DNA from: a virus
Lineage: Duplodnaviria > Heunggongvirae > Uroviricota > Caudoviricetes
Direction: 5' to 3' (one strand)
DNA: 64,000 bases
IMG/VR virus record: IMGVR_UViG_3300010429_001387
Span: 1 to 64,000 of that record
Shown: positions 850 through 33,056 of the stretch, piece after piece
Position numbering within the stretch: position 1 is the stretch's first letter
How the letters are laid out: every line of letters starts with the position of its first letter
Made by a program: the position numbers and the translations under genes
The notes under the pieces: model-generated
The model's input: the letters and a program-made list of their open reading frames with translations, nothing else
Database searches by the model: none
What the model was told of the DNA's origin: nothing

Positions 850-1071
850 TTAATCGAAAAGTCGAGTTTTACAATTGCATTCATTAACTTCACCAAGATC
901 ATAAGTAACAATAACTTTTCCGGACAGATCAGGAATATTTTTCACATTTTTGTTTCGAACTGTATTTCCGGGAGGAACAATACACTGATTACCATCTGAT
1001 TCCAATAATGTTATTGATATAGATGATATGTTCTTTAATTCTTTAATCCTCATTGCTATTCCTTTAGACAT
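850..1071 (-). CDS. Hypothetical small protein (73 aa)
   Basis: ORF on the coding strand shared with its neighbours. Next to its start at 1071 lies a conserved 'ctcgtttaactgtt' sequence that recurs at the 3' ends of the LRR-like paralogs. Confidence 0.3.
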   Translation of the reverse strand: MSKGIAMRIKELKNISSISITLLESDGNQCIVPPGNTVRNKNVKNIPDLSGKVIVTYDLGEVNECNCKTRLFD

Positions 1072-1098
1072 ATTCTCGTTTAACTGTTAGAGAAATTA

Positions 1099-1587
1099 TC
1101 AAACATTAACTCTCCTTGGTGCAGCCGCATAAATTCTTGTTAATACTGCATCATGCATATTTGCAATCGCCACATCAACCACTTCAAATTCTTCAGTTCC
1201 TACATAATTAGCTGGAATAAATTCAGGGGATATTCTAAAATAAGATCGTAATACAACATCAATAGCTACTTCACTTCCAGCATTTGAGCCTTCTAATGCT
1301 GTTGCAACATTTCCAAATCTTACTAAAATAGGAAGTTGCCCATCATCTGTAAACAATCCCAATTTTTTAAGTTTGTTCATAGATGGTTTCCATTCAATAA
1401 ACACATTCGCTGTGTAGGATGTGTAAACAAGATCCTCTGGCACTGAATATATATCCAATTTTTCAGCTTCTGAATATGTTGTATTGGTAGGAATAAATAA
1501 AGTGCAGGCTATGCCTATAATGTCTAATGCAACATCGACATAATTCCTAACAACATCAATTGTCCGACGTGGAATAAGCTTCGACAT
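1099..1587 (-). CDS. Hypothetical protein (162 aa)
   Basis: 162-aa ORF. Its start overlaps the stop of the upstream gene at 1587, which suggests translational coupling. Confidence 0.5.
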   Translation of the reverse strand: MSKLIPRRTIDVVRNYVDVALDIIGIACTLFIPTNTTYSEAEKLDIYSVPEDLVYTSYTANVFIEWKPSMNKLKKLGLFTDDGQLPILVRFGNVATALEGSNAGSEVAIDVVLRSYFRISPEFIPANYVGTEEFEVVDVAIANMHDAVLTRIYAAAPRRVNV

Positions 1588-1823
1588 TATATTTTCTCGA
1601 TTTCAAAACCAAATACAGTTTCCAAATACGAAATCAACGGTTGTATTCCACCGTCATTAAATTCTAACCAAGCATCTTCAAGATCATTAGCAGTCATCAA
1701 ATCACGATTATGCCAAGTAACCTCATATCCATGTTTTTCGATTGTATCTAATAGTCTATGGTATGAATCTTCAGGTGCTGCTCGAAAATCCTCATTTAGT
1801 TTATCAACTAGATTATGGTACAT
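1587..1823 (-). CDS. Hypothetical protein (78 aa)
   Basis: Compact ORF with the same orientation and tight spacing as its neighbours. Confidence 0.45.
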   Translation of the reverse strand: MYHNLVDKLNEDFRAAPEDSYHRLLDTIEKHGYEVTWHNRDLMTANDLEDAWLEFNDGGIQPLISYLETVFGFEIEKI

Positions 1824-1832
1824 ATGTTGTCC

Positions 1833-2399
1833 TTATCTTAAATAGTCTCGTTTAACTGTTTGTTTGAGTTTTTCCTTCGGAACCAAATTATCACTACAAA
1901 AGAAAACTCCTTTTACTTCAAGAGGAGCTCCTTCAAGAGAAGTTAATCGATTCCCCATACATTTGAAATTACCATTTATTACTTTAGGAACTCCGATTAA
2001 CGAAGTTATTTTATTAAAAGAACAATTAAAATCTTTTCCGACTCTTTTAGGAGCATCATAAAGAGAAATCAATTCATTATTGTCACAATAAAAACTTCCG
2101 CGTACGTCGATTGGACATCCTTTTAATGAAGTCAGCTGATTGTAACTACAATCAAAATGTCCTTTTACTTCTTTAAATTTAACAGGAAGTTGAGTTAAAT
2201 GTAAATCGAATAAATCAACATCATATTTACATGAATATGTTCCATCATCATTTAAAATCCATTCTTGTTCTTTTACTAAACGTTCAATTCTATCTTTTAA
2301 TCGTTCGTCTCGTTCCGCTTTCGAGATCGGCTGGAATGCCGAGTCGAAGTCGGATTCTTCGAATACGTGAATTAGAGATTCATGGAGTTTAGAGAACAT
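1833..2399 (-). CDS. LRR-like tandem-repeat protein, paralog C (about 5 degenerate 22-aa repeats)
   Basis: N-terminal about 55 aa conserved with ORFs 3019..3519 and 4457..5020. Repeats follow the pattern 'F-C--N-LTSL-G-P--V-G-'. The C-terminus 'KQTVKRDYL' is conserved. Confidence 0.6.
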   Translation of the reverse strand: MFSKLHESLIHVFEESDFDSAFQPISKAERDERLKDRIERLVKEQEWILNDDGTYSCKYDVDLFDLHLTQLPVKFKEVKGHFDCSYNQLTSLKGCPIDVRGSFYCDNNELISLYDAPKRVGKDFNCSFNKITSLIGVPKVINGNFKCMGNRLTSLEGAPLEVKGVFFCSDNLVPKEKLKQTVKRDYLR

Positions 2400-3022
2400 T
2401 ACCCAATTCCTAATTCTCTCTTAATATCTGCATAATCTATTGAATTATCTTCTTCATCAAAACACTCTTTTGTTCCAGCAGGACCAACTGCAACAGCATA
2501 CTTTTTATTGTGGGTTTTATCAATCACAACATAAATTGTGATTCCTCCTTCCCAGTATTGATCCCACCAAGTCGCTGTTTTTCCAGAAATACACCATTTA
2601 GTATTAGCTCCATAAAAACATGACGCTTTGTGTGATTTTAATTTCACTATAAGGTATTTGTTTGTTTCTTGGATAATTTCAGAACCTTCTTCTTTGGCTT
2701 GCTTTTTAACTTCACCTTTAGTTTTTACTTTTGACCTATTTTGGATCAAATCATCCAATGATTCTAAATCGTAGGTATAGATATTAGATTCGTCTTTTTG
2801 TACAATTTTACGATTTACAAGGGGATCAAAAGCTTTTACAACATCAATAATATGACGTTGTCTAGTAGGATTTTGTAGATATTGTTTAAGCATCCACTGC
2901 AGATATTTCTTGCTTTTCGAAGGATCTTCTTTAAGAAATAATTCAAAAGCCTCTGCAGATACTTTATTAGTGTCGACATATTGTTGGTGAAGTTCTTTTG
3001 TGCCTTCTTCAAGATATTTCAT
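2399..3022 (-). CDS. Hypothetical protein of a 'TxWC'-motif family (paralog of 20117..20872)
   Basis: Shares 'KASCFYGANTKWCISG...TWWD...YVVIDK' with 'KASQWFCRGTRWCLGS...TYWE...YVLILK' in the other ORF. Its start and stop overlap the neighbouring genes. Confidence 0.55.
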   Translation of the reverse strand: MKYLEEGTKELHQQYVDTNKVSAEAFELFLKEDPSKSKKYLQWMLKQYLQNPTRQRHIIDVVKAFDPLVNRKIVQKDESNIYTYDLESLDDLIQNRSKVKTKGEVKKQAKEEGSEIIQETNKYLIVKLKSHKASCFYGANTKWCISGKTATWWDQYWEGGITIYVVIDKTHNKKYAVAVGPAGTKECFDEEDNSIDYADIKRELGIG

Positions 3023-3519
3023 AGATAGTCTCGTTTAACTGTTTGTTTTAACTGTTGTTCAGGGACAGGATTACGATAACAATCAAAATATCCTCCAACA
3101 TGTGCAGGTGCACCCTGGAGTGATGTTAGTCTGTTTCCACGACAAAAAAAATTTCCTCTAACATGTGCAGGTGCACCTTGGAGTGATGTTAGGTTGTTTT
3201 GGGAACAACTAAAATCTCCACCAACATGTGCAGGTGCACCTTGGAGAGATGTTAATTGGTTATGGAAACAATAAAAATGTCCTCTAACTTCCTTAAACGT
3301 AACAGGAAGTTTAGTTAAATGTAAATCGAAGAGATATACAGTCCCTTCACAAGAATAACTCCCGTCGGGATTTTGTATCCAGGATTGTTCTTTTGCTAAA
3401 CGTTCTATTTTTTGTTTGAGACGTTCGTCATATTCTTCGGGCGAAACCGGCTGGAATGCCGAATCGAAGTCGGATTCTTCAAATATTTGTTGAAGATTAT
3501 CGAAAAGTTGATAATACAT
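3019..3519 (-). CDS. LRR-like tandem-repeat protein, paralog B (3 near-identical 22-aa repeats)
   Basis: Three 66-bp tandem DNA repeats encode 'NxLTSLQGAPAHVxGxFxC'. The N- and C-termini are conserved with the paralogs. Confidence 0.6.
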   Translation of the reverse strand: MYYQLFDNLQQIFEESDFDSAFQPVSPEEYDERLKQKIERLAKEQSWIQNPDGSYSCEGTVYLFDLHLTKLPVTFKEVRGHFYCFHNQLTSLQGAPAHVGGDFSCSQNNLTSLQGAPAHVRGNFFCRGNRLTSLQGAPAHVGGYFDCYRNPVPEQQLKQTVKRDYL

Positions 3520-4436
3520 TACTTAATCCCCAGCATACTTTTTAGTTTAACAACATCTTCAGTTTCAATTTCATCATCTTGCATTAACTCGTTTAAATCT
3601 CCAATAATTTTCAAATACTGATATTTTGCTAAAAACTTAAAAGCTGCATTAGCATCATTCCAATCTTTTGCCAGCTTAACATCCTTTAACAACTCATCGG
3701 GAGATTTTTCTGGCATCTCAATGCTGCGAGCATCAATCCAAATTTTGCGTAAATCATAAAGTTTTTGAATATCAGCTTCAATTTCTTGTAATTTCGCTTT
3801 AGCTAATTGTAAGAATTTCTGTCGTTGGGCTTTTGACATGTTTACCATTGCTTTATGCAACGTATCAAAATCAATCGTATCTCGTTTTAATTCGCCTAAC
3901 AACATATCTGCTTCTTTAAAGGAATCTTGCATTCCCTTTAAAATCCCAGAATAATCTTGCATGGGGTCATAATCCGGTGGAACAATTCTTGGACCTTTAA
4001 TCCAAGCATTTGTTAATAGATCATAAACTCCTTCAGATCGATAGTCCTGCAAAGGATTAAACTGTATGGATATTTCGATCGGATGCTGACCAATAAAAGC
4101 ATCTAAGTCGGTTTGATGTTTTTCAAACCACTTACGAACTTCTTTAGCATCTTTTTCCGTCCATGGGGTTTTTGGAATTATATGCACATCAATATCTGTA
4201 TCTTCTGTATATTGATTTGTTGTAATTGACCCCACTATGTGAATTTGGTCTGCAAGCTCCTGAATATTAACAGTCGGATGTTGTTGCATTACTTTGTATA
4301 TCTTAGCTGCAACAGTATCTCGGAGCTTGTAGATACCATTTGGTTGTTTATCCCAAACCTGCAAATCCAATCCGGCTCGAGGATAATCGAGAAGTGATTC
4401 TTGGATTAGTTGGATTTTATTAAAAAGGTTTTGCAA
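3519..4436 (-). CDS. Pol-beta-superfamily nucleotidyltransferase
   Basis: 'VGSITTNQYTEDTDIDVHII' matches the hG[GS]x9-13Dh[DE]h NTase signature. An alpha-helical C-terminal half follows. The stop codon is shared with the downstream paralog. Confidence 0.6.
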   Translation of the reverse strand: MQNLFNKIQLIQESLLDYPRAGLDLQVWDKQPNGIYKLRDTVAAKIYKVMQQHPTVNIQELADQIHIVGSITTNQYTEDTDIDVHIIPKTPWTEKDAKEVRKWFEKHQTDLDAFIGQHPIEISIQFNPLQDYRSEGVYDLLTNAWIKGPRIVPPDYDPMQDYSGILKGMQDSFKEADMLLGELKRDTIDFDTLHKAMVNMSKAQRQKFLQLAKAKLQEIEADIQKLYDLRKIWIDARSIEMPEKSPDELLKDVKLAKDWNDANAAFKFLAKYQYLKIIGDLNELMQDDEIETEDVVKLKSMLGIK

Positions 4437-4456
4437 GGAATATTCTCAACTTTTAA

Positions 4457-5020
4457 TTATAAATAGTCTCGTTTAACTGTTTGTTTTAACTGTTGTTCAG
4501 GGACAGGATTACGATAACAATCAAAATATCCTCCAACATGTGCAGGTGCACCTTGGAGAGATGTTAGGTTGTTGTGAGAACAAGAAAAACTGTCTCCAAC
4601 ATGTGCAGGTGCACCCTGGAGAGATGTTAGGTTGTTGTGAGAACAATAAAAAGTTCCGCTTACAAATTGCGGTGCTCCCTCAAGAGAGGTTAATTTATTA
4701 GCATTACAATAAAAACTTCCTCCAACATGTGCTGGAGCACCTTGGAGGGATGTTAGGTTGTTGTGAGAACAATCAAAAGATCCTTTTATTTCTTTAAATT
4801 TTACAGGAAGTTGTGGTAAATTTAAACGATAGAGATTTACATCTCCATTACAGGAAAAAGTCCCATCAGGATTTTGTATCCACTTTTGTTCTTTCTTTAA
4901 ACGTTCAATTGTCTGTTTAATACGTTCTTGATGTTCCTCTTTCGAGATCGGCTGGAATGCCGAATCGAAATCATCTTCCTCGTAGATGTGGATTAAGTTT
5001 TCGAATAATTGATAATACAT
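4457..5020 (-). CDS. LRR-like tandem-repeat protein, paralog A (5 repeats)
   Basis: Five 66-bp tandem repeats encode 'NNLTSLQGAPAHVGGSFxC'. It shares the N-terminus 'MYYQLFENL...DFDSAFQP' and the C-terminus 'VPEQQLKQTVKRDYL'. Confidence 0.6.
   Translation of the reverse strand: MYYQLFENLIHIYEEDDFDSAFQPISKEEHQERIKQTIERLKKEQKWIQNPDGTFSCNGDVNLYRLNLPQLPVKFKEIKGSFDCSHNNLTSLQGAPAHVGGSFYCNANKLTSLEGAPQFVSGTFYCSHNNLTSLQGAPAHVGDSFSCSHNNLTSLQGAPAHVGGYFDCYRNPVPEQQLKQTVKRDYL
4520..4790. repeat. Tandem 66-bp coding repeats (5 copies). Related arrays lie at about 3100-3260 (3 copies) and, degenerate, at about 1900-2200
   Basis: Repeated 'catgtgcaggtgcaccttggagagatgttaggttgttgtgagaaca...' units are visible directly in the sequence. 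Confidence 0.8.
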
Positions 5021-5883
5021 TATTTCATGATCTTTAACAGGACTTTAGGCTTATCAGTTGTAATGAATTCAAAAATAACAGCGTCCTTAACTTCTTTAGT
5101 TTCAGTATGCCAATACCCTGCTTTTTGAAGTCCTTCCGCAACAAGATTAGCTATATCTTCGGGATGATCAATCGTAACTTCTTCATTGATGGATTCTTTG
5201 ATAAGTGAAATGGCTTTAGGTACTAATACCATTTTAAGATACACCATCTTAACATCTTCATCAGGATCAAGTTTAGAAGGATCGACAAAATCTTCCAATG
5301 AACTAAGAGCATCAATCATTTCATCATCTGTGGGCCATTCATTAGGAATCTTACCTGATTCAACTGCATCTCGAACAGCTTTGTTATCGTCTGGAGTAAG
5401 TTCTTCCATCTCACCCACTAGCTCAAGAACACCTTCAGTTAATGTTTTAATTACTTTCTCTTCATTGTCATCTTTGTTAGGGACTTTACCTTCTTTAACA
5501 ACCTTCTCGACTAATTCAGAAGAACAAAATGTACATTTACTTTCATTACTCCGAAATGTCTTAAAACAGGCATTACAAAGATAAAGATCAGACTTCTTAT
5601 TTTCTTTAGCCGCAGCTTTAGGCTTGGGATTTTGTGTATCTTTATCCGGAACTTCTTTCCAAGTCTTGTCATTTTTGAGCTTCGGCTTTGCTTTAGGACC
5701 ATTTAACTCCTGGTCAGAATAGTCTTCCATACCAATTTCTTCAGGAGTATTTTCGGGTTTTTTATCAGCAGGAGTCTGTTGTGGAACTTCAATAAGCTCG
5801 ATCTTTGTTTCTTCAATATCTAATCCAGCTTTCTTAAAAGCGTCATCCTCTCGCATTATATTAAGCAATCCCGTGAATTCCAT
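5020..5883 (-). CDS. Acidic protein with a zinc-ribbon and the 'EGKVPNKDDNEEKVIKTL' motif
   Basis: Contains 'CNACFKTFRSNESKCTFCSS' (CxxC...CxxC). It carries the same 16-aa motif, on a near-identical 47-bp DNA segment, as the giant ORF at 16361..20101. Confidence 0.55.
   Translation of the reverse strand: MEFTGLLNIMREDDAFKKAGLDIEETKIELIEVPQQTPADKKPENTPEEIGMEDYSDQELNGPKAKPKLKNDKTWKEVPDKDTQNPKPKAAAKENKKSDLYLCNACFKTFRSNESKCTFCSSELVEKVVKEGKVPNKDDNEEKVIKTLTEGVLELVGEMEELTPDDNKAVRDAVESGKIPNEWPTDDEMIDALSSLEDFVDPSKLDPDEDVKMVYLKMVLVPKAISLIKESINEEVTIDHPEDIANLVAEGLQKAGYWHTETKEVKDAVIFEFITTDKPKVLLKIMK
5447..5493. repeat. Dispersed 47-bp near-identical segment. Other copies are at 18513..18559 and 19815..19861
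   Basis: 'ttaattactttctcttcattgtcatctttgttagggactttaccttc' occurs three times in two different genes, with one mismatch in the third copy. Confidence 0.85.
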
Positions 5884-5886
5884 GTT

Positions 5887-6372
5887 TTACTCCTTTTCTT
5901 CCAAGTCATCAATAAGTTCAACCTTCTCACCATTCATGTCTGACCAGAAAGTTGACCCTCCTTTACCCTCCCAATCGATCAAATCCTTGCATCGATCATA
6001 TACCTGTCCACCACGACACCAAAAGGCTACTTCATGTCGACGACCTTTCTTGGCTCGTGGTTGCAAAGCTAAAGGATGCAGACAGGCAAATCGCATATTA
6101 AGCAACTTTTGCACTGAATCCGCAACACATTTTTCATCAAGGATCTCATCCAGGATCGCTAATGCACGTTTATCCTTTGGCAACACCTTTGCACCATTGG
6201 CAACAGCTGCATTAAATAACCTTTCCACCCCAGTTGCTGGCATTTTATCAGAATATGATCCTAAAATCCTTAACAAGCGTTTAAACAATTTAAGATCTTT
6301 AGCTTCTAAAATCCTTTTAGCTTTACTCATTGGTATTTTCCTCATTTCCACAAATATCATTAATGCTTTCAA
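5887..6372 (-). CDS. Hypothetical protein (161 aa)
   Basis: ORF on the coding strand. The overlapping plus-strand ORF 5873..6406 is judged spurious. Confidence 0.45.
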   Translation of the reverse strand: MKALMIFVEMRKIPMSKAKRILEAKDLKLFKRLLRILGSYSDKMPATGVERLFNAAVANGAKVLPKDKRALAILDEILDEKCVADSVQKLLNMRFACLHPLALQPRAKKGRRHEVAFWCRGGQVYDRCKDLIDWEGKGGSTFWSDMNGEKVELIDDLEEKE

Positions 6373-7198
6373 TCAATGCTTCAATTGTTGCTTGCGTTTG
6401 TCCTAATGTTGGATAAAATATGTTCTGAATTCGTTTTAATCCAACAACAGATTCTTCAACTTGATCTACAACAAACGGATCATCAACTTGTATTGATAAT
6501 TGATGCTGAAGATCATAGTCAACTTGAGCTTCAAATATCATATCAACATCTCCCATTTGTGAGAGATATCGACAAGCAGCTAAGCATTTGCCAGGAAGAA
6601 CCTTTTCATTGATTTCATTATCGAGAATTTGAGATTCAAGAATATCCAATTTTCCTAAATCCTCCTCCTCATTCTCAATTAAATCTTCGAGTAAAGAATT
6701 AACTGCATTTTCCATGTTTCCTAATAGGACTGTGGGATCTGATGCAGTGAGATTCTCTTTGAGATCAAAACATTGTATCCATCGAGTTGCTATTGTGTTA
6801 AGAGCTTGTAGAATAGGCTTTTGGAAATGTTCGACAATTGCATCTCTTAATCGTTCTTTACGAGATTCGAAAACATCTTCATCTTGATCCGAATCCAATA
6901 ATGGATATGATAAATCAAGATATGAATTCTCATCTAATTGCCCATCAAACATAGAATTAAAAGAAGCCCAATGTTCATGAGGAACATGAATTTGGAGTTG
7001 GTCCTCAAAGCAGACTGTCCGCATTTTGTCTCCTTCAAGGATTTCAATGTTCCATTTGTTCTTTTGACGTTTGAGATCACCCAATGTAGCCTTGACTGCT
7101 CCCATTTGAGATGGAAGGAAAGAAATAGCACTCATTGTAGTTGTCTCGTCTTTGCGAAGCGATTCGCCCATATTTGTTGAGAGATCATAGAAATTCAT
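6323..7198 (-). CDS. Acidic hypothetical protein (291 aa)
   Basis: Long ORF with D/E-rich stretches. It overlaps its neighbours by a few codons. Confidence 0.5.
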   Translation of the reverse strand: MNFYDLSTNMGESLRKDETTTMSAISFLPSQMGAVKATLGDLKRQKNKWNIEILEGDKMRTVCFEDQLQIHVPHEHWASFNSMFDGQLDENSYLDLSYPLLDSDQDEDVFESRKERLRDAIVEHFQKPILQALNTIATRWIQCFDLKENLTASDPTVLLGNMENAVNSLLEDLIENEEEDLGKLDILESQILDNEINEKVLPGKCLAACRYLSQMGDVDMIFEAQVDYDLQHQLSIQVDDPFVVDQVEESVVGLKRIQNIFYPTLGQTQATIEALIESINDICGNEENTNE

Positions 7199-7199
7199 T

Positions 7200-10100
7200 T
7201 TAGGTTCCTTTTTGCCAAACAGTTATAGGTTCCATTCGACCAGCATAACAATTTTTCTTTGGATATTTACCTTCATATTCCGAACTAACATTTAAACTGA
7301 TCTTTTTTATCCAAGGTTGAATATGAGATAAAATTTCGTCTTTATGTTGTTCCCATGCAATTTTAGCAGCTTCTGATCGTTTTCCAATTGGAGCTTTAAT
7401 TTTCCACATACCTAAATGACTAACATGTCCAATTTCTTTCGGCCACATTTCTTTAGGAAAATATTCCTTTGATACATACACAACATATGTTGCTAATTTC
7501 TCTTCTTGAAGAGATTCATGGAATTGTGCTGCTAAACTTGGAGCATGAACTTCTTCTCCTCTGAGATACGCTGACAAATCAGATGATGATCGAAGAGGTA
7601 TAGAATCCCCTGTTCTATCAATCCACAAACTTGTTGAATCATGTAATTTTGCTATTTCCTGCAATGCTATGATCTGTTGTTGAGTTGGTTTTTGATTAAA
7701 ATCTAAATGCAATTCACCTTTATCAATATCTGAACTTACGCGGATCATCCCTGTATTTTTAGCTACACCATACCCATATGTATGAGGTAATAATATGTCG
7801 AAATGAGCACATTTAACCCATAGTATGGTACCATCATTAAGAATCCACAATTTTACAACGTGTTCACCAGGAAAAGTCGATTTTGTCATCAATTGTTTTT
7901 GAGTTGCCGGAGGAAACTTAGCTTTAAACCCTTGCTGCAGTTCTGGTAATTCGTCAGATTCCTGGATGGATTCATTTGCAGCCTTTTGACATTCCTTTTG
8001 ATATTTTTGACGAACCAATACAGTCCATGTCCAAGGCACAGGTTCAATTAATTCATAAGCTGTTTGGTAATCTGTATCAGACCATTTGTATCCTTTAGCA
8101 AGTTTTTTTACTTCAGGAAAAATCATTTCTATTTCTATTCGTTTTGGTTTAAATCCCTCTTCTTTTAAAATGTTTTTAAGTTGAATCATTTGCTTTGTAG
8201 TTGGTTCTTCATATAGATTTAAAACCAAATCAGTTTCACCATATGTTCGAAATTGTAATGCGGTTTTTTCAAAGTATTTACGATGAACTTCACCTGTACT
8301 TAATATTTCTGATCTACCATCTGAAAACACAACCCCTGCAGTTTCAAGTAATTGTTTTTTTGATTCATGGAATTGTGCTGCTAAACTTCGCACATTTCGA
8401 CCCATTGCTAAAATACTTCTTAATTCTTCTGGCCAATTATCATCTATTGGTTCAATAGATCCTTCCATATATGGGGGATTCAATCTTTGAACAATCATAC
8501 ATTGAATTGGTTCATGCCAACCATTTATTAATTTATTAACAGCAATAACTTGCTCTTTTGTTAAAATACCTCGAGTCCGAACAACAATAGTAGCTTTATT
8601 ATCGTATACCCAAGCTGGGTATATGCGATATTCTAAAGCTTGTAGTTCCAGAAAACTAGCATCATCATCTACATAGTCAGCATGTTCTTTTCTTGGGTCA
8701 TTTTCAAAAATACGACCATCAGGAAATACAAAACCTGACTTACCAAGATCTCGACCTTTGGCCGTTTCCTCAGTAATGGATTCAACTTTCTTCTTACCAA
8801 GAGCAATTCCTGCCGCTTTGAATCTCGCAGCTGTTTCTTTAGCTTTCCGTTCTGCCTTTTCAATTACGTCATTATAGAACTTCTTGATCCAATTTGCCAT
8901 TGTACCTTTATAGAATGGCAAAACTTTCATTAGATTCTGAAGATGCTTGCAGTATGCTCCATACTTTTTCGGATTTCGAATATCAGGTGATCGATTTTCA
9001 GGCTCACCATACTTAGCTCTATACTTGTCTTGGGAAAGGATATAGTCTCCTCCCCAATAAAGTTGTGCTGGACAGGAGCATGATAATTCAATATCACCAT
9101 TACTAAACATCTTAGCAGCTAATTTCTTAAGATCCACTTTATTGAGTTTCTTATTCCAATTTCTCCGATCCGCAACAAGACGTTCCAAATCTGGACCAAC
9201 ATTCTTCCATTTAACAACTGCATCATACCAAAGATCATCTTCAGTTGCTGAATGAATTCGAAACTCCCATTTATCCTTTTCCATATTATGCAACCGTATT
9301 CCCCCCTTGGCTGCAACTCCTGGAACTTTCTTAGGATTAGAATAGAAATCTGGGAATAGTCGAGTTATGGATTGTTGTTTCTTTTTAAGCTGAGAAAGAT
9401 TAGCTTCTTGTATTTCAGATTCATATGCTGGTTGGTTCAGAAATTCTGGTCCATCTTCAAGAGCCATTTTAAGCCGATTTGTATCAGTTACATCCACTGT
9501 TGCATAACCACCCTGGACCAAACTCAAATCTATAGATACACTATATAGTTTGTATTTATTAATCAATGTCATCACTGATTTTATCTGCTTAGGATTCAAA
9601 GTCCCACCAGTGTCAAGGGATATAGATTCATTTGGCACGATTCGTCCACGGATACCACCTGATCTTAAAAACAATCGTTGCAATTCATATGCCTCATCCT
9701 CTTGAGAAGTAAAACGCACAGCCTTTAACTTTTTCCAATCCTTGCCCGCAATCGTCGCAGCATGCCAAGCTGGCACAACAACTACGGATCCATCATTAAG
9801 TATCAGAAACTTAAGAAATTGATCTTCACCAGCACCCGTCCAAAGACTATTGGGTATGTCAAAAGATATTTGTTCACGTCCCTTAATCTCAGCCTGTAGA
9901 GGAGTCAAGGCCATTGGATTAGTACGGATCTTTGTGGCAACAGCTTCATCAACAGATTCATGAAACTGTGCTGCTAAGGATTTTTGTTTTACTTTTCCAG
10001 TTAAAATAGCAGGCAACTCTTTAGAAGATTTAATATTAAATGTTGTGCCAATATGTTCTAATACTACGGTTTTTGTATTATGCAAATCACATAATTTTTG

Positions 10101-10463
10101 CAACCATTTAATCTGTTCAATTGTAGGTTGTTTTTCAAAATCAATATACATCGTTTTATTTTCGGTTGAAGCTATTCGAATTGCACCAGAGACAATCAGT
10201 TCGTCAATATCAGAACCAGCGTCATATGCTGTTGAATAATGGATATCATCTACAAATATTGGTGTTCCATCATTTAACAGCCAAAATTTTACTAAATAGC
10301 TTTCAGTAGTAGCATGAGTAAAAAGCTCTGATTTCTTTGCAGGTCCAAAATGCTTTACTAAATTCTGTTGAACTTTAGGCAAAGCAGTTTCATTAACAAG
10401 AGAAACTTTCTTCTTGTCTTCTTTGAACAAATCTTTCGCATCATGAAAAATGCTATCAAACAT
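7200..10463 (-). CDS. Large protein (1087 aa) with a triplicated internal domain
   Basis: Three copies each of 'SLAAQFHES' and 'W(L/I)LNDG(T/S)' spaced about 280 aa apart. The matching DNA repeat 'ttcatggaattgtgctgctaaac' occurs near 7520, 8355 and 9960. Confidence 0.6.
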   Translation of the reverse strand: MFDSIFHDAKDLFKEDKKKVSLVNETALPKVQQNLVKHFGPAKKSELFTHATTESYLVKFWLLNDGTPIFVDDIHYSTAYDAGSDIDELIVSGAIRIASTENKTMYIDFEKQPTIEQIKWLQKLCDLHNTKTVVLEHIGTTFNIKSSKELPAILTGKVKQKSLAAQFHESVDEAVATKIRTNPMALTPLQAEIKGREQISFDIPNSLWTGAGEDQFLKFLILNDGSVVVVPAWHAATIAGKDWKKLKAVRFTSQEDEAYELQRLFLRSGGIRGRIVPNESISLDTGGTLNPKQIKSVMTLINKYKLYSVSIDLSLVQGGYATVDVTDTNRLKMALEDGPEFLNQPAYESEIQEANLSQLKKKQQSITRLFPDFYSNPKKVPGVAAKGGIRLHNMEKDKWEFRIHSATEDDLWYDAVVKWKNVGPDLERLVADRRNWNKKLNKVDLKKLAAKMFSNGDIELSCSCPAQLYWGGDYILSQDKYRAKYGEPENRSPDIRNPKKYGAYCKHLQNLMKVLPFYKGTMANWIKKFYNDVIEKAERKAKETAARFKAAGIALGKKKVESITEETAKGRDLGKSGFVFPDGRIFENDPRKEHADYVDDDASFLELQALEYRIYPAWVYDNKATIVVRTRGILTKEQVIAVNKLINGWHEPIQCMIVQRLNPPYMEGSIEPIDDNWPEELRSILAMGRNVRSLAAQFHESKKQLLETAGVVFSDGRSEILSTGEVHRKYFEKTALQFRTYGETDLVLNLYEEPTTKQMIQLKNILKEEGFKPKRIEIEMIFPEVKKLAKGYKWSDTDYQTAYELIEPVPWTWTVLVRQKYQKECQKAANESIQESDELPELQQGFKAKFPPATQKQLMTKSTFPGEHVVKLWILNDGTILWVKCAHFDILLPHTYGYGVAKNTGMIRVSSDIDKGELHLDFNQKPTQQQIIALQEIAKLHDSTSLWIDRTGDSIPLRSSSDLSAYLRGEEVHAPSLAAQFHESLQEEKLATYVVYVSKEYFPKEMWPKEIGHVSHLGMWKIKAPIGKRSEAAKIAWEQHKDEILSHIQPWIKKISLNVSSEYEGKYPKKNCYAGRMEPITVWQKGT

Positions 10464-10477: not shown

Positions 10478-11065
10478 TCATTCTTGAATTGGTAAAATCG
10501 CATTATGGTTTCCCAATACACGATAATTAATTACTTTACCTGTGTCTGTCAAATAGACTTTTTCTATTGCAATTCCCCAACCTTTTGAATCTTCCTTTAA
10601 ACCCTGCAAGATTTCCGATTTCAACTCTTTGCGAGCACTAGTTACAAGCTCCTGCAATGTCTTCTCAGCTATGAAGTCATGTATCACACCCAATGCTAAG
10701 GTCTGTATATTTTTGTCGTGATCAAAGTTCTTAAACAATGCTTTCTTAGCAGATGTAAGATGATAACGCAATGCTCCAGAAATTATGACTTCTTGCCCAT
10801 CTCTTGTCCAAGCAGATTGTGCTGGAAGATCTACAATTTGAGTTTTAACTTTTACCTTCTCAGCATTTTGGACTAAAAACCAAATTATGTGCCAACCAGG
10901 CATTAATTCTTTTACCCAGACACCCCCATCTATATTGTCACGATTCCAAGGCCAACCATTCCATAATTTAGGTGTAACACGAACCCCCAACTCATCAGGA
11001 TTGATTATCCATAAACGAGGAATCACAGACAATATTTTATCCAGAAGTTGATACAGCCAATCCAT
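10478..11065 (-). CDS. SPFH/band-7 domain protein
   Basis: 'DGQEVIISGALRYHLTS...WGIAIEKVYLTD' resembles the SPFH core, including the 'GI.V..V.I.D' element. Confidence 0.45.
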   Translation of the reverse strand: MDWLYQLLDKILSVIPRLWIINPDELGVRVTPKLWNGWPWNRDNIDGGVWVKELMPGWHIIWFLVQNAEKVKVKTQIVDLPAQSAWTRDGQEVIISGALRYHLTSAKKALFKNFDHDKNIQTLALGVIHDFIAEKTLQELVTSARKELKSEILQGLKEDSKGWGIAIEKVYLTDTGKVINYRVLGNHNAILPIQE

Positions 11066-12834: not shown

Positions 12835-14340
12835 TTACGATCCTAACACATACCCACTTGCCAGGTTTTGAATCGCACCAGCACAGAACAGCCCAGCGTT
12901 GATCGTCTTGAAGGCTGCAGACGACATGAAGCCTTTCTGAGAGATCAAATCACTGGTAGTCAGTGTTGGCGTTGCGAACAGCGGAATATATGGACAGTAA
13001 ATGAAACCTGCATGCATATAGTCCGGTCCACGGAAACCTAACGTGTAGTTATTGGTCGATTTGAACGGATTCTGGATAACAGTTACCTGATTGTCCAGGA
13101 CACCAATCTTAATCGGACCAGTCGGAATTTGGACCGTAGGAGCAGGAGCAAAATGATCCTTGCCCAGCTGCTTGATAACTCGAGCAACATTGTTTCCACA
13201 AACCATGAAAGTCGCGATACCTCTCTTGGTCTTATCGAAGATGTTGTTCGAGCCTTCTTGGATACGATCCAGGAATTCCAGTTTCTTGAACACCCAAGCT
13301 TCACCCTGCGAAGGACGAGCATCCCAAGTCGTTGGAGCAGTTGCAGCATCACTTGATGCCGCAGCAGTATCAATATAGTCCAATCCACGTTGATCAATTG
13401 TGAACTTGATTTCCCCACCCAAATACTTCACAAGTTCACTCTCGAGATCAATACCGTGAGCCTTCTTAAGATCGATCTCTGCACCCAGCGACCATTTCGC
13501 TCTCAGAGGGAAATCCTGGGCAGTAACAGCCGACTGTGAAACCTCGATGTTCGCCTCGGGCACACCATCCAGATTGCCGTATGCATCAGCCGGAAGATCA
13601 TACTGATAGTCATAACTAATCAGGATTGTTGATCCAGAGGTTGATCCGGAAACTGTAAAGGCGTACACACCGGCCGCAGTAATGCTCCCTGTACCAGTAA
13701 TGTAATCACCAGTGATGTTACCATCCTCATCTGACGTACCCAGTTCAGTGTAAGTTGAGCTAACCTTCTGCTCAATCACAACATTTTCCAGGTTAATCAG
13801 GCCAGGAGCAAACGAGCAAGTTCCAGACTTCGAACCATCGCCAGCACCAGACACCGTTTCACGCTCAACGTGAGCAATCGCATACCGACGCTCAGATTGA
13901 CTTTCCGGATGTCCTGTCGTTGAAGACAACATGGTTCCACCTGAACTAACTTCACCCTTGCTGGTACCATACTTAACATCCAGATAGAACACAGCCGCAA
14001 TTCTACGATCAATTGCCTGAACGATAGAAACTTCATTCAGCACAAGTGTCGGCAGCAATGCAGCAATGACCGGCAGCTGAATACCCAAGAAGCTGATATT
14101 GTCTTCAGTTGTAGTCTCGAACAGACGACTGTTCTGCTTCACGCCACATTCGAGGATGGCATTGTACAGACACTGAGCAACGTTTCGCTTCTCGTGCAGG
14201 GTAATAGGACGATTGTGCTCTTCGAGCATGTACTTCTCAACAGATGCCAGAAGGGGTTTAATCTTGGGATGTTCCATGAGGGAATCCCGAGCAGCATCCA
14301 TCTTCCGCATTTCATTTTGAATCATTTCTTGCAGCTTCAT
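12835..14340 (-). CDS. Major capsid protein (candidate)
   Basis: 501-aa ORF directly downstream of the protease/scaffold gene, so size and order fit a T4/SPO1-like head module. No defining motif was found, so this is a positional call. Confidence 0.45.
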   Translation of the reverse strand: MKLQEMIQNEMRKMDAARDSLMEHPKIKPLLASVEKYMLEEHNRPITLHEKRNVAQCLYNAILECGVKQNSRLFETTTEDNISFLGIQLPVIAALLPTLVLNEVSIVQAIDRRIAAVFYLDVKYGTSKGEVSSGGTMLSSTTGHPESQSERRYAIAHVERETVSGAGDGSKSGTCSFAPGLINLENVVIEQKVSSTYTELGTSDEDGNITGDYITGTGSITAAGVYAFTVSGSTSGSTILISYDYQYDLPADAYGNLDGVPEANIEVSQSAVTAQDFPLRAKWSLGAEIDLKKAHGIDLESELVKYLGGEIKFTIDQRGLDYIDTAAASSDAATAPTTWDARPSQGEAWVFKKLEFLDRIQEGSNNIFDKTKRGIATFMVCGNNVARVIKQLGKDHFAPAPTVQIPTGPIKIGVLDNQVTVIQNPFKSTNNYTLGFRGPDYMHAGFIYCPYIPLFATPTLTTSDLISQKGFMSSAAFKTINAGLFCAGAIQNLASGYVLGS

Positions 14341-14356: not shown

Positions 14357-16249
14357 TTATGTCCAAGACTTTAGAAATCCTTTTACTAATTTGTCAGACG
14401 CAGATTGTTCTGCATCGACTATCACGGTTTCTTGGATTTTGACCTCCTTGATCTTCTCCGGATGAAGTGCACCCCGACGAGCAACACCAATAATCTTCTC
14501 CAAGAGACTATCTACATCATGAAGTGTTTCACAATCTTCGAGAAGTGCTCGAGTATTGGTATCAACCTTCAATCGCAGATGAGCCAAACGAGAATCGAAG
14601 TACTCAGCAAGTACCTCGTTACGTCCTGTTAATTTAGCATTGTTTGCAGTTTCAACTAATTCAGCTTGATGTGATTTATGGTATTCATCAAGCTTTGATT
14701 CAGCAATTGTTTTAGCTTCTTGCAACTGTTTAGTTGTCGAAGCCGCATCAGCTGCTTTTGTTTCTAGCATTGTTCGAAGACCATTAACTTCGGCTTCAGC
14801 AGTTTCTTGAATCTTCTTAATCCTATCTTGCAACATTCGAACTTGTAATTCAGAATGTTCAGATTCCTCTAATTCCTCGATTAACTTTTCACATTCTGCA
14901 CGAGCAGTTGCTTCTGCTATTTTAAGATTAGTTAATTGTGATTTGATATCAGAGGATTCATTTTCTTTAGTCTTTACTTCACCACGATGTGACTTACCTG
15001 ACTTATCATAGCAATAGCGAACATATTCATCTTTCTTTAATCCATGTTCCTTGTCACCTGATACTGTTCGAACTCGACCACCTTGGTCAACACATTTGTT
15101 GAATTCTTCATCTTCTTGAACTTCTTCGGACTCGGCAACTGAGGACTTTAATTTTTTCAAAGCATCCAATGCTTCATTTTCTGTATCAAACCAACCAGCT
15201 ACAATTTTATCGCGATTCAAATTTATAACAGCAAATTTCTGTGCTTTTTGCTGTGAAACAATGTCATATTGATCTGATGGGTAACCGGAATAATCTTCTT
15301 CCTCTTTTAGCTTTGATTCAGATTCTTCAACTGACTCCATGGGAAGTTCTTTTTCTTCCTCTTCCTCTGGAGTTTCCAATCCCATTTCGCCAGGAGCTAA
15401 TTCTGGTTCTTCGAGAGGCATTTCTTCTTCAGGAGCAACCATATCACCAGCAAGAACCCCACCTTCTTCTCCCGGAGGAACTTCCGGAGTTGGACTAACA
15501 CTTACATTAATCCCGGCACTATTCTGGATTGTAGTATTTCCAGCTAAGTCACCCGAAACTTGAATATTAGTTTGCTGACCTTTATCTTCAATATTAACAG
15601 AAATATTAGATTCATCAACCTTTAAGGATTCCAGCAGCTTAACTGCAAATGCTCTGTCTCCAGCCTTCATATGTTTGTTTTCTAACTCTCTCTGAAGAGT
15701 TTGTGCAACATTCATGCGAACATCAAGAGGTTCCACACCATATGTCGAAGGATCTGCTGTAAAATCAGTTGTTTTATATTGATATGATTCTGGAACAACT
15801 CGTTGGACCTTAACACCTTCACCTAACTCAACCTCTTCCAGATCACCTTCTGCTCTTGTAGACATTCCAACTTTGGATCCTGCTCTTAATAGACAATCAA
15901 CAATTCGACCAGTTGGAGTATCAACTATATCTACAGTTTGATAAACTTTGTTGGATGCTTCATCTATCCACATCTTATGAATAATGTGGGATGTTTCTCG
16001 GAGATCTGATTGGGTCTCCATCGGATGTTCAGCATGCCCAAATAGACAGCGATCCGCAAGCTTCTGTTGGAGTTCAGAATCTGAAAGAACTTTTTCCCAA
16101 ACTTCCTTATCATACACTCGACCATTTGCATTCTTTTCACCTAAATTACAAATGCAATAGGTTGCCCGAGACAATACACTTTCAGGAAGGTTATTTCGAT
16201 CAGATTCGACTAATTGAACATTAGCTTTTAAGCTTTCTATTAGCTTCAT
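14357..16249 (-). CDS. Prohead protease/scaffolding fusion protein (candidate)
   Basis: A globular N-terminal domain is followed by an acidic, coiled-coil-rich C-terminal half ('EEEEKELPMESVEESESKLKEEED', long heptad regions). It sits immediately upstream of the capsid candidate. Confidence 0.4.
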   Translation of the reverse strand: MKLIESLKANVQLVESDRNNLPESVLSRATYCICNLGEKNANGRVYDKEVWEKVLSDSELQQKLADRCLFGHAEHPMETQSDLRETSHIIHKMWIDEASNKVYQTVDIVDTPTGRIVDCLLRAGSKVGMSTRAEGDLEEVELGEGVKVQRVVPESYQYKTTDFTADPSTYGVEPLDVRMNVAQTLQRELENKHMKAGDRAFAVKLLESLKVDESNISVNIEDKGQQTNIQVSGDLAGNTTIQNSAGINVSVSPTPEVPPGEEGGVLAGDMVAPEEEMPLEEPELAPGEMGLETPEEEEEKELPMESVEESESKLKEEEDYSGYPSDQYDIVSQQKAQKFAVINLNRDKIVAGWFDTENEALDALKKLKSSVAESEEVQEDEEFNKCVDQGGRVRTVSGDKEHGLKKDEYVRYCYDKSGKSHRGEVKTKENESSDIKSQLTNLKIAEATARAECEKLIEELEESEHSELQVRMLQDRIKKIQETAEAEVNGLRTMLETKAADAASTTKQLQEAKTIAESKLDEYHKSHQAELVETANNAKLTGRNEVLAEYFDSRLAHLRLKVDTNTRALLEDCETLHDVDSLLEKIIGVARRGALHPEKIKEVKIQETVIVDAEQSASDKLVKGFLKSWT

Positions 16250-19300: not shown

Positions 19301-20101
19301 TTTTGGCTTAGCAGGTTCAGTTGGCTCAGGAGCAGGAAGTTCTTCTTCCTCTTCTTCACCACCCATAAACTCTTCAGGCTCTTCCTCTTCAGGTTCAATT
19401 TCTTCTTCCTCTTCATCTTCAGGAAGGATGTATTGTAACACAACAGATCTTTCTAATTGTGCAATATCAACTTCTTGGATGACCTTGTCGATAAATGTTT
19501 CAACATTTGTTGGATCCAGATCATGTTCCTTAGCTGAATAAACCGGATCTCCTTCTTGATTAACTAATTGGAGATCGGTGACTTCAGCTTCTTCAGATCT
19601 GTCAACAACAAGATAATAATGAACATCATCTGTATGTCCAATGTAGATCTTATCGAAATCGATTTCAGCTGGTTCTTCTTCCTCTTCAGGCTCATCGGTT
19701 AGCTCAGGATTAGGCTGTTCCTCTTCCCCTGGCGTGATCTCTTTGTCTGCTTTGGGTTGGAAGGCTTTGTCGAATTCTTTGTCCTTTGGATCCTCAGGAG
19801 CTTCCATTAAAGTCTTAATTACTTTCTCTTCATTGTCATCTTTGTTAGGGACTTTGCCTTCAGCTTTAACTTTAGCTAAGTTCCTACGGAGAAGTTCAGC
19901 TTCTACTTCTCTCTTGTCATGCTCATATGTTTCGTATCGTTTACCTGTAGGATCTTTATATCCTTCATCCATTTCTTTGTAGAAAGCAATTAGTTCTTGA
20001 TCTCCCATTTCGTAAATGTGACAAACACATTCGTGCATGGGAATATCTCGCATGAAATTATCTTTGTTGTCTACAAATTCGCGAATCCAATCACGCTTCA
20101 T
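16361..20101 (-). CDS. Giant acidic protein (1246 aa); candidate internal head or ejected protein
   Basis: Poly-Glu tracts and two copies of 'EGKVPNKDDNEEKVIKTLME'. A C-terminal 'GIKVELEHT...AMDHLAEDPQYY' domain is present. It lies upstream of the head genes. Confidence 0.55.
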   Translation of the reverse strand: MKRDWIREFVDNKDNFMRDIPMHECVCHIYEMGDQELIAFYKEMDEGYKDPTGKRYETYEHDKREVEAELLRRNLAKVKAEGKVPNKDDNEEKVIKTLMEAPEDPKDKEFDKAFQPKADKEITPGEEEQPNPELTDEPEEEEEPAEIDFDKIYIGHTDDVHYYLVVDRSEEAEVTDLQLVNQEGDPVYSAKEHDLDPTNVETFIDKVIQEVDIAQLERSVVLQYILPEDEEEEEIEPEEEEPEEFMGGEEEEEELPAPEPTEPAKPKTKPMESKDGDMKKKLSETLIKDEKGNEFDIELLDETEKRIKLRINDKEYRFTADFAHLFGANEGRMTDEGIKELALETISHLDEQDYVELVAQRTVESKNESKVQETVVLISVDEEAFNEDPTLDKIMREKLGFHFMSTGAGSTEYVVEEKLSEVKQKIRNNVIPGIQKLIHYEVRNDLDMSDFNESKVNEFGEDFAPASQEEGNKYFATQLVTHLMKMKSKGMLEPEEEELLKKAQEAAGMSEETMEGKVPNKDDNEEKVIKTLMEEEGIDYRGKRVRFTGEKMHGHDEPLPRWAKNYVGKVGIATSIRKDNEDEGVYFVKFDDGRELNLADDEIELAESNIQEEDYGVIKHVYEVTFVVDGVEKKMRVEAFDEDDAKQMMARKKGVEKVTKIVKIGESKKNEGYESPGKRDGTGPYKASARRKAGLPGMRKSEDEECVKEDHKDILSGGLADNRAEDEFDPEQLQMGIKVELEHTNTPELAKEIAMDHLAEDPQYYTHLDRMEKGACDEPGDRTHEEEIDEPTEECVKEETVEEANYHIPDSPDAKAGDVEAIAAAVQQIVNRRLVKSARQTDAGFELKGVKDIKAVNALLPKGVSLMRESKINEMKENRKAGNHKTHLKEAYKPEEVVATTFEPGVYYFGDICYVMKDEMYHGFWGDKCDFNDGVYDSPEGKFAVAGTAYGDGEYKGSDGIRYGVDAGVLGIVPESMWKVDRKEAESMGRVFDVQNNLRFEAENGEFSVNTDGRRVVVNTRDGDEEEGEDEEEYYANIDNEEAEYEEDECKMKESETVEEAKKDPKAEVRNRGNVVFPAGSKSVKDDKDHFPINNIGQARNALARVNQYSSAPKWYTGSLDTMKKKVASAVHAKYPSIKISKAAKESKVDESKVEEVVTAPVVEESDESVQIANLILGLNKTKPVDVEIKENDTVQVMLSRNFYPVIEEGVVRKVEKDRILIESKEIPNSNRQWFATDMHRFIVIS

Positions 20102-32868: not shown

Positions 32869-32983
32869 TCCTTTGATTTATCACGACACCAATTTTTAGA
32901 CTTCTCTTTCTTCTTGTCTTTAAAGACATTTGTTGGAGGAGGCATTTTACCTCTAGGAAGTTTTGGTTTATTCTTTTTCATAA

Positions 32984-33055
32984 CTCCCCAGGAAAGAATC
33001 GAACTTTCATTTTGCGGTTAACAGCCGCACGTTCTACCATTGAACCACCAGGGAA
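32984..33055 (-). tRNA. tRNA-Asn: tRNA-Asn (GTT)
   Basis: Manual fold gives acceptor TCCCTGG/CTGGGGA, D stem GTTC/GAAC, anticodon stem TGCGG/CCGCA with loop CTGTTAA, and T arm GAAAG-TTCGATT-CTTTC. No CCA is encoded. Confidence 0.65.
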
Positions 33056-33056
33056 G

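Follow-up and report, generated by a model that had tools for sequence, protein, structure and literature searches.

We found that an uncultured T4-like myovirus encodes, within its neck/tail structural block, a two-domain Pol-beta-type nucleotidyltransferase (NTase) that carries a short N-terminal leader ending in a prohead-protease-type site. We propose, with moderate confidence, that this NTase is a capsid-targeted enzyme that is matured by a phage protease and injected into the host with the DNA.

The NTase gene lies at positions 3519..4436 on the minus strand of the window (the whole stretch of 64,000 nucleotides that was analysed), starts with TTG and encodes 305 amino acids. Independent gene callers made the identical call (P0001, 100% identity), in agreement with the first-pass annotation, which had also correctly placed the gene between LRR-like paralogs. 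The two flanking paralogs occupy 3019-3519 and 4457-5020, a third lies at 1833-2399, and the NTase stop codon (3519-3521) shares one base with the start of the downstream LRR gene. Judged from its sequence conservation, the open reading frame is certainly coding, because it has 97 homologs at E ≤ 1e-10 and an exhaustive search returned 3,798 cluster representatives at E ≤ 1e-3, including 322 below 1e-30. Scans for promoters and terminators near the gene found nothing above chance level. A nucleotide search with the NTase region found no match among GenBank phages, and tblastn with the query and three divergent family members found no homolog in cultured phages, the matches coming solely from uncultured 'huge phage' assemblies at ~28-29% identity. 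The head-to-tail block of Listeria phage LIS04, the nearest cultured relative by capsid (28%), has no copy of the NTase. Among GTDB genomes, the NTase occurs in only three MAG contigs, which are probably mis-binned phage.

Structure prediction gave the alpha/beta NTase fold of the Pol-beta superfamily for residues 14-160 (3957..4397, minus strand), followed by a C-terminal helical bundle (residues 161-305; 3522..3956, minus strand), the same arrangement that had been proposed earlier. The peptide IVGSITTNQYTEDTDIDVHII is present in the protein, and the superfamily motif hG[GS]-x9-13-Dh[DE]h takes the form G69-S70-x10-D81-I-D83 (4188..4232, minus strand); the GS and DxD elements named in the first-pass annotation stand, with a spacing of ten residues rather than nine. 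Among 225 full-length relatives, diverging down to ~25% identity, G69 is retained in 223, S70 in 224, and D81 and D83 in all 225. The earlier reading had been made to depend on an NTase fold and a third catalytic acidic residue: the fold is predicted, and the likely candidate for the third metal-binding carboxylate is E121 (4074..4076, minus strand), which sits in the predicted strand 118-124 (HPIEISI) and is conserved in 195/225 relatives (87%), the replacements being N (14), Q (7), T (3) and D (3). Because this residue is N, Q or T in ~11% of the relatives, some members may lack activity; alternatively, another residue may supply the third ligand.

The helical bundle is predicted to bind substrate or NTP. 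Across the same 225 relatives, R237 and K267 are invariant, being among the residues kept in 223-225, and D177, R185, D189 and K215 are near-invariant. The bundle itself gave weak four-helix-bundle matches, and the top full-length Foldseek matches to the NTase are two-domain ANT-type enzymes (AadA/ANT(3'')(9), ANT(9), ANT(4') and LinB; E 5e-3 to 3e-2), which likewise combine an N-terminal NTase domain with a C-terminal helical substrate-binding domain. However, this match is weak (TM ~0.2; identity 11-13%) and comes with no sequence-family match, and an antibiotic substrate is implausible for the NTase of a lytic phage. Pfam NTP_transf_2 (PF01909) scored 20.8 bits with the query against a gathering cutoff of 21 bits; it matched 45 of 74 family members at E ≤ 0.01, its cutoff was exceeded by several fused relatives, and a precomputed match exists for 5 of the 97 homologs. 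Searching the PDB by sequence with the query was uninformative, the family profile found only sub-significant MNT and Trf4 matches there, and searches of NCBIfam and PADLOC returned nothing meaningful. Members of the family are strongly acidic, with a median pI of 4.8 and a net charge of -13 on the N-domain, which argues against extensive nucleic-acid binding.

The NTase occupies a variable slot immediately upstream of the conserved neck, gp15-like and sheath genes. Across 84 related loci, it is followed on the same strand by a 162-aa protein (69 loci), a gp15-like protein (70), the sheath (74) and the tube (60), and is preceded by homologs of the 287-, 161-, 291- and 1087-aa proteins of the window and a gp13-like adaptor. 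The window has the same gene order, after the protease and the major head protein. Downstream, two conserved genes of the neck region (162 aa and 73 aa; 850..1587, minus strand) are followed in relatives by the gp15-like, sheath and tube genes; upstream, the conserved 161-aa and 291-aa genes (5887..7198, minus strand) recur in related loci, with homologs at 40 and 35 of them. The 162-aa gene is separated from the NTase by a lineage-specific insert (1587..3519, minus strand) that encodes a 78-aa protein, an LRR paralog, a 207-aa protein and a second LRR paralog, most of them with the same type of leader as the NTase. The 78-aa protein is fused to the NTase C terminus in P0112, the 207-aa protein resembles the C-terminal extension of P0105, and in P0010 the NTase is fused to a C-terminal fragment of the 1087-aa neighbour. 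Among close relatives retrieved via the neighbouring 162-aa gene, 25 of 26 have the NTase. Sixteen more distant relatives have the same neck, gp15 and sheath genes and no NTase; the same interval holds unrelated open reading frames of 428-1250 aa, and three large ones among these occupants had no PDB sequence relatives. The NTase is thus stable in one clade but dispensable, which fits cargo better than an architectural part.

The predicted capsid-targeting propeptide comprises residues 1-13 (MQNLFNKIQLIQE; 4398..4436, minus strand), with predicted cleavage between E13 and S14 (I11-Q12-E13/S14; a slash marks the putative cut). In the predicted structure, residues 1-15 have pLDDT <50 and order begins at about S14. 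Among NTase relatives, the leader is portable, 10-25 residues long and ends in [LIVMF]-x-E/S: in 157 solo relatives, P3 is [LIVMF] in 130 (83% hydrophobic), P1 is Glu in 135 (86%) and P1' is Ser in 150 (96%). In 69 fused relatives the site also persists at the internal junction, an MxxLLEKIL...E leader stands at the start of fused polyproteins regardless of their first domain, and in relatives lacking the NTase the unrelated proteins in the slot bear the same type of leader. Within the window, a site at residue 11-15 occurs in 8/10 consecutive genes in 1587-10463 and in 6/90 genes elsewhere (Fisher p=6e-7; p=2e-5 with paralogs collapsed), and a matrix built only from the NTase leaders of other genomes placed six head/neck-block genes within the top 7 of 100 window genes. 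The 287-aa upstream neighbour (5020..5883, minus strand) begins with MEFTGLLNIMRE/DD, and its orthologs maintain LLxK[IL]QE/[SA]T; the upstream LRR paralog of 187 aa (4457..5020, minus strand) begins with MYYQLFENLIHIYE/E; and the polyprotein-like 1087-aa neighbour (7200..10463, minus strand) contains three exact SLAAQFHE/S linkers at residues 164-170, 695-701 and 978-984. Because the 291-aa and LRR ortholog families keep a cleavage-type site inconsistently, the leader hypothesis applies most strongly to the NTase and 287-aa families. The h-x-E motif is short, and E13-S14 together with the following I-D-F/Y-P is so well conserved that it could belong to the fold or active site and not to a cleavage site.

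The same phage encodes a T4 gp21-type prohead protease of 630 aa (Peptidase_S77; 14357..16249, minus strand; Pfam 3.7e-10; phrog_207 4.9e-28), which has LVE/S and LPE/S sites in its own N terminus and is the predicted processing enzyme of the NTase. Proteases of this type cut after Glu in I/LxE (PMC12991175, PMC5694885), and T4 internal proteins are loaded via cleavable capsid-targeting sequences; processing sites include ITE-6 in T4 Alt and SLE-13 in phiKZ gp93, and SPN3US prefers Ser at P1' (PMC12991175, PMC5694885, PMC10052503, PMC3012670). The leader of the NTase resembles those of T4-type internal head proteins in being short, N-terminal and ended by I/L-x-E.

Some relatives of the NTase are fused to the cell-wall lysin domains SLT, LysM, Hydrolase_2 and Amidase_3, which are typical of virion-borne wall-degrading proteins. 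Others are fused to ART-PolyVal, DarA_C, DMP19, ligase plus PrimPol (with or without cREC), the LigD 3'-phosphoesterase, 2H/Acb1-like or NUDIX domains. Polyvalent proteins, for which packaging and injection have been predicted, draw on the same domain repertoire (PMC5512222). As in those proteins (Iyer et al. 2017), the NTase occurs both within multidomain proteins, alongside conflict-type domains, and alone, with the solo copies lying among virion genes of the structural module. Domains that occur together in polyvalent proteins do not necessarily act in one pathway. The NTase already described from polyvalent proteins, a minimal domain of four strands, comes from Firmicute conjugative elements and is fused to ArdC-N (PMC5512222), whereas the present family has two domains, ~300 aa and a phage origin. 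Architecture and host range separate it from the ArdC-N-linked, PF18765-like NTase (PMC5512222); PF18765 itself scored 14.6 bits with the query against 26.9, with weak sub-threshold matches in 15/74 members.

An alternative that we regard as unlikely is that the NTase is expressed late but not packaged, and acts late in infection within the cytoplasm, for instance by countering defences that sense late proteins or by nucleotidylylating a virion component or DNA during assembly; E-S-x-I-D-F-P would then belong to the fold and mark no cleavage site. A conserved catalytic core and a position in the structural module are equally expected in this case, and the residues past the putative site are conserved as strongly as the site itself. 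However, this alternative leaves unexplained why one portable leader precedes unrelated domains, why the site is retained at fusion junctions and why relatives are fused to virion-type lysins and to DarA_C/ART-PolyVal.

It is improbable that the NTase is a structural or morphogenetic neck/head protein that uses the fold without a catalytic role. Its fixed position among neck/tail genes and the variation at E121 would suit such a protein, but GS and DxD are invariant across the 225 divergent members, which implies selection for catalysis. Moreover, the 16 relatives described above retain the neck, gp15 and sheath genes without it, and the head-to-tail region of the nearest cultured relative by capsid has no copy either.

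Slightly less probable still is a tRNA nucleotidyltransferase that adds or repairs CCA on phage tRNAs or on damaged host tRNAs. Inspection of the 3' ends bore out the earlier observation that none of the ten tRNA genes of the window encodes CCA, and fusions to RNA-end-processing domains (2H, cREC, RNA/DNA ligase) occur in distant relatives; weak MTPAP-like palm matches were seen in 35/74 members. The idea of a CCA-adding activity, raised in the first-pass annotation, found no support: the NTase lacks the PolyA_pol head-domain signature and the tRNA-binding body/tail domains of CCA-adding and class II tRNA nucleotidyltransferases, and there is no genomic linkage to tRNAs (1/53 loci). The characterized RlaP enzymes (PF10127; T4 NrdC.11), RNA-ligase-associated NTases that add 1-2 NMP to RNA 3' ends, have a similar layout of NTase and helical domains (bioRxiv 10.64898/2025.12.29.696909). 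Like the present protein, they are phage-encoded and form a cleft from these two domains; ligases and end-healing domains are fusion partners in distant relatives of the present family. However, RlaP has a basic cleft and an early-region gene, whereas the NTase is acidic, as judged by net charge, and encoded in the structural module. We reject membership of the RlaP family, for which there was no PF10127 match and an hhalign probability of 0.3%.

Least probable, and very improbable, is a CD-NTase (cGAS/DncV-like, as in CBASS), a class also named in the first-pass annotation, whose product would be a nucleotide signal, cyclic or linear, or else a decoy signal: Pfam and PADLOC gave no CD-NTase or SMODS match, the nearest folds are MNT/ANT rather than the bilobed cGAS/DncV type, the C-terminal domain is a long helical bundle and no effector or receptor gene is adjacent. 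Nor did the protein prove to be a minimal NTase of the MNT antitoxin kind: compared with HI0073 and MntA it is three times larger, its fused helical domain has no Rx4-6H motif, and its neighbours are LRR and structural proteins of a phage module, with no HEPN match among them.

What fits best is the more generic proposal of the first-pass annotation, that the enzyme serves host takeover or counter-defence by modifying a protein or nucleic acid. The neck/tail slot, the lysin and polyvalent fusions and the prohead-protease-type leader were absent from that annotation. For an injected NTase, the closest known counterparts are T4 Alt and the internal proteins IPI-III, effectors that are packaged in the head, processed by gp21 and injected (PMC5694885, PMC3012670). 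Like those proteins, the NTase is predicted to have a short N-terminal targeting leader that would be removed after Glu in I/L-x-E by a gp21-family protease, and we would place it among the enzyme or effector cargo of a T4-like head, whose repertoire varies among related phages. By contrast, Alt is an ADP-ribosyltransferase whereas the present protein is a Pol-beta NTase, and the T4 internal proteins are encoded in IP loci whereas the NTase and the other genes with leaders lie in the neck/tail block.

We envisage that the NTase would be made late, together with the structural proteins, and directed to the prohead core by its 13-residue amphipathic leader. The gp21-type protease would trim it after Glu13 (I-Q-E/S), and the trimmed enzyme would be stored in the head and then ejected into the host with the DNA. 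There, NTP and Mg2+ would be held by G69/S70, D81/D83 and probably E121; R237, K267 and other residues of the helical domain would hold the phosphates or the acceptor, and a nucleoside monophosphate would be moved onto a hydroxyl of a macromolecule at the very start of infection. The leading candidates for the acceptor are a nucleic-acid 3' end and a host protein. If the enzyme is active, the acceptor is possibly the 3'-OH of an RNA or DNA end that is repaired or tailed without a template; somewhat less possibly a host protein, through AMPylation-type takeover or neutralization of a defence protein; and, with lower probability, something else.

T4 Alt, P1 Dar and the virion RNA polymerases of N4 and phiKZ are delivered from the head and act ahead of phage gene expression. 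To our knowledge, few kinds of head-delivered phage enzymes have been described, and we know of no characterized head-delivered nucleotidyltransferase like this one. The family has thousands of metagenomic members, no specific family or name, and sits just below the cut-off of Pfam NTP_transf_2; being large, absent from cultured phages and below the cut-off, it constitutes a sizeable blind spot. More tentatively than for the single protein, we suggest that the family is a new class of capsid-injected NTase effectors that are loaded by a portable leader, freed by the prohead protease and at work from the outset of infection. If so, its members may tail or cap a nucleic-acid end, for example to shield the end of the incoming genome or to repair or mark RNA, or they may AMPylate a target in host defence or takeover. 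Identification of the acceptor could disclose a new host-takeover or anti-defence reaction. If the leader and h-x-E/S code holds, the set of injected proteins ('ejectome') of this uncultured T4-like lineage, LRR paralogs included, would be readable from sequence alone, allowing injected cargo to be predicted across the lineage, and the leader would serve as a portable tag with which to load foreign proteins into such capsids.

The ORF at 3519–4436 (minus strand) is present as the first-pass annotation described it, encoding a 305-aa Pol-beta-type nucleotidyltransferase (NTase), and it is certainly a coding gene. It begins with TTG, 20 nt after the preceding stop codon, with only a weak GAGA-type ribosome-binding site. 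We accept this start despite the weak site because an identical, independently called metagenomic protein (P0001) and a same-length homolog at 64% identity agree on it. An indexed search returned 97 homologs, and at E<=1e-3 an exhaustive search returned 3798 cluster representatives, including 322 with E below 1e-30. The GS...DxD motif reported earlier was recovered, but with a spacing of ten residues instead of nine (GS-x10-DxD; G69, S70, D81-I-D83). Among 225 full-length relatives diverging down to ~25% identity, D81 and D83 never varied (225/225), and G69 (223/225) and S70 (224/225) almost never did. Two residues of the helical domain, R237 (224/225) and K267 (225/225), were as conserved as the motif itself. 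The candidate third carboxylate, E121, lies on the strand after the motif (HPIEISI) and is likely to fill that role; it was kept in 195 of the 225 relatives, the remainder having N, Q, T or D there.

An alignment-based AlphaFold model of the NTase was confident (pLDDT 89, pTM 0.80), with a disordered N-terminus (residues 1–15, pLDDT <50), an alpha/beta domain and then a long helical bundle (residues 158–302). Its closest structural relatives were MNT and ANT enzymes, and TUT was also among the matches. The query scored 20.8 bits against Pfam NTP_transf_2, for which the cutoff is 21. Across 74 family members (E<=0.01), Pfam matched NTP_transf_2 in 45, the MTPAP-like palm in 35 and PF18765 in 15, and none matched the CCA/poly(A)-polymerase head domain, the CD-NTase/SMODS families, RlaP or the HEPN/KNTase_C families. 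PADLOC and NCBIfam searches with the NTase gave no meaningful match, and its single PHROG match was to a family of unknown function. RlaP, which has a similar NTase-plus-helical-domain layout and puts 1–2 NMPs on RNA 3' ends (bioRxiv 10.64898/2025.12.29.696909), was rejected as an identity, the family profile scoring 0.3% probability against T4 NrdC.11 in hhalign. The family is unnamed and distinct from known ones; it is large and uncultured, falls just below the NTP_transf_2 cut-off and has no specific family assignment.

Two earlier proposals gained no support. CD-NTase membership fails in the Pfam, PADLOC and structural comparisons. A tRNA-CCA activity had been suggested because none of the ten tRNA genes of the window (32983–35451, minus strand) encodes CCA. 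That observation is correct; such genes are common, and a host enzyme normally adds CCA. The NTase has no CCA-enzyme signature, lies ~29 kb from the tRNA cluster, within the structural block, and is linked to tRNA genes in just 1 of 53 related loci. Within the cluster, a tRNA-Ile whose anticodon, TAT, is unusual lies beside tRNA-Ile(GAT). A related locus (L055) holds a seven-tRNA block (5168–5801) inside the variable cargo slot, mid structural module, ~4.3 kb upstream of its NTase gene.

The central result is the genomic context. The window phage is a myovirus, and the gene order places the NTase in its virion module. On the minus strand, a Peptidase_S77 prohead protease (14357–16249) is followed by the major head protein (12835–14340), a distant T4 gp23 relative with <=28% identity to any cultured phage, and then by a gp13-like adaptor and an SPFH protein, by proteins of 1087, 291, 161 and 287 aa, by the series LRR, NTase, LRR, 207-aa, LRR and 78-aa, and by genes for 162 and 73 aa. 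In homolog loci, a gp15-like protein, sheath, tube and baseplate come beyond these last two. Among 84 loci with a family member, 69 had the 162-aa homolog, 70 the gp15-like protein and 60 the tube downstream of the NTase on the same strand; the sheath lay downstream in 74, on the same strand in 70 of these. Homologs of the window's upstream genes recurred upstream, and an SLT or 3D lytic transglycosylase lay directly upstream in 19 of the 84 loci. When loci were retrieved through the 162-aa gene instead of the NTase, the NTase was just upstream in 25 of 26 close relatives. In sixteen more distant relatives the NTase was absent, and unrelated ORFs of 428–1250 aa occupied the interval bounded by the same conserved genes, so that the slot is a variable cargo region within a conserved neck/tail block. 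One clade retains the NTase stably, yet the architecture does not depend on it. No copy occurs in the nearest cultured relative. GTDB genomes yielded only three NTase-bearing MAG contigs, a scarcity that speaks against residence as a prophage. The Asgard-archaeon MAG 'Candidatus Borrarchaeum weybense' includes a 179 kb contig (L087; JAHQJS010000001.1) whose NTase is 44% identical; this is probably a complete phage genome of the window lineage that was binned wrongly.

The SPFH/Band_7 protein (10478–11065, minus; Pfam 1.4e-18), between the head–tail adaptor and the cargo block, is also found in another related locus (L003). It is an uncommon component of a virion module and has a leader-like N-terminus (MDWLYQLLDKIL). 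Very large DUF5661 proteins lie in the head modules of the window (16361–20101, minus; 1246 aa) and of a related contig, L001 (3608–6592; 994 aa), the latter near a Tad3-family match. The 1087-aa protein (7200–10463, minus) looks like a polyprotein, in which repeated modules are joined by three identical copies of the linker SLAAQFHE|S (residues 164–170, 695–701 and 978–984); the 8-mer recurs in its orthologs in two other genomes (L037 and L079). A CxC...CxH stretch in this protein (CSCPAQ...YCKHL) looks like a SWIM-type zinc finger, without a Pfam call. The three LRR paralogs (166–188 aa; 1833–2399, 3019–3519 and 4457–5020, minus; weakly internalin-J-like in NCBIfam, 1e-6) have in common an N-terminal leader (MYYQLFENLIHIYE|E...) and a DFDSAFQP motif. 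The NTase is embedded between them in the window, as first noted, but this is a local feature, as LRR homologs occurred in only 11 of the 84 loci. Because they are so restricted and their positions vary, the LRR paralogs may be further injected cargo.

In many relatives, the whole two-domain NTase module sits inside larger proteins, for example SLT-NTase, ART-PolyVal-NTase, DMP19-NTase, ligase-PrimPol-NTase-cREC, NUDIX-NTase-2H and NTase-DarA_C. Among 69 fused proteins, Pfam identified wall-lysis-type partners (LysM 6, Hydrolase_2 6, SLT 5, Amidase_3 1), DUF5662 (3), LigD 3'-phosphoesterase (3), ATP-dependent ligase (3), LigD PrimPol (3), 2H phosphoesterase (3, two of which also matched Acb1), and cREC, ART-PolyVal, DarA_C, DMP19 and RNA ligase (1 each). 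A C-terminal fragment of the window's 1087-aa protein is also fused to the NTase elsewhere. The 'polyvalent proteins' of Iyer et al., for which packaging and delivery together with the DNA were predicted, draw on this domain repertoire; the NTase of that study is another, minimal, ArdC-N-linked domain of Firmicute elements (PMC5512222). The 78-aa protein (1587–1823, minus) is homologous to the C-terminal extension of an NTase relative (P0112), and the 207-aa protein (2399–3022, minus) to part of that of a 1030-aa relative (P0105) and to PHROGs 28193/17056 (unknown function); both could be additional pieces of a polyvalent protein that has been split up.

The N-termini carry a candidate site for proteolytic processing. 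In 157 solo family members, a variable amphipathic leader of 10–25 residues, typically MxxLLEKIL..., precedes a site with L/I/V/M/F at P3 (130), Glu at P1 (135) and Ser at P1' (150). In the query this site is I11-Q12-E13|S14, at the boundary of the disordered leader and the ordered domain. The 69 fused proteins retain it at the junction preceding the NTase domain. Fused polyproteins open with an MxxLLEKIL-type leader irrespective of their first domain. T4 gp21-type proteases, of which the window encodes one (Peptidase_S77), cut after the Glu of I/LxE motifs (PMC12991175). Known sites include ITE-6 and LTE-619 of T4 Alt and SLE-13 of phiKZ gp93; SPN3US gp245 prefers Ser at P1', and cleavable capsid-targeting sequences direct the internal proteins of T4 into the prohead (PMC5694885, PMC10052503, PMC3012670). 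A [LIVMF]-x-E-[SDEA] motif at residues 11–15 was present in 8 of the 10 consecutive genes at 1587–10463 versus 6 of the 90 others, two of these six being head genes (Fisher p 6e-7; 2e-5 with the LRR paralogs counted as one). A position matrix built only from other genomes' NTase leaders placed six head/neck-block genes in the top seven of 100 window genes. Unrelated slot proteins of NTase-less relatives begin with the same kind of leader. In one of these (L111), adjacent ORFs (976–1623 and 1620–4949) have an identical 15-residue N-terminus (MSSNIYSDIYAEVSE) and diverge completely thereafter, resembling the processed paralogs gp53/gp54 of SPN3US. The shortness of the motif weakens the cleavage reading. 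Residues right after the site are conserved as strongly as the site and may belong to the fold, and orthologs of the 291-aa and LRR proteins keep the site inconsistently.

The NTase fold and the idea of packaged enzymatic effectors are already known; the literature searched contained no characterised capsid-targeted NTase. In the model that we find most likely, at about an even chance, the NTase is head cargo: it would be made late in infection, targeted to the head by its leader, trimmed by the prohead protease after E13 and ejected along with the DNA, and it would act by transferring NMP when infection begins. Beyond the conserved catalytic motif, every step of this model is one that we infer. 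Its acceptor could, tentatively, be a nucleic-acid 3' end, consistent with the weak poly(A)-polymerase-palm matches, with the TUT matches and with fusions to ligase, PrimPol, 3'-phosphoesterase, 2H, cREC and NUDIX that recur in independent arrangements. A protein or small-molecule hydroxyl, as predicted by Iyer et al. for polyvalent NTases, is a slightly more doubtful acceptor, to which the MNT and ANT relatives and the strong acidity of the family (median pI 4.8, N-domain net charge -13) point. Among the functions first proposed, the evidence favours the generic one, a modifier acting in host takeover or counter-defence.
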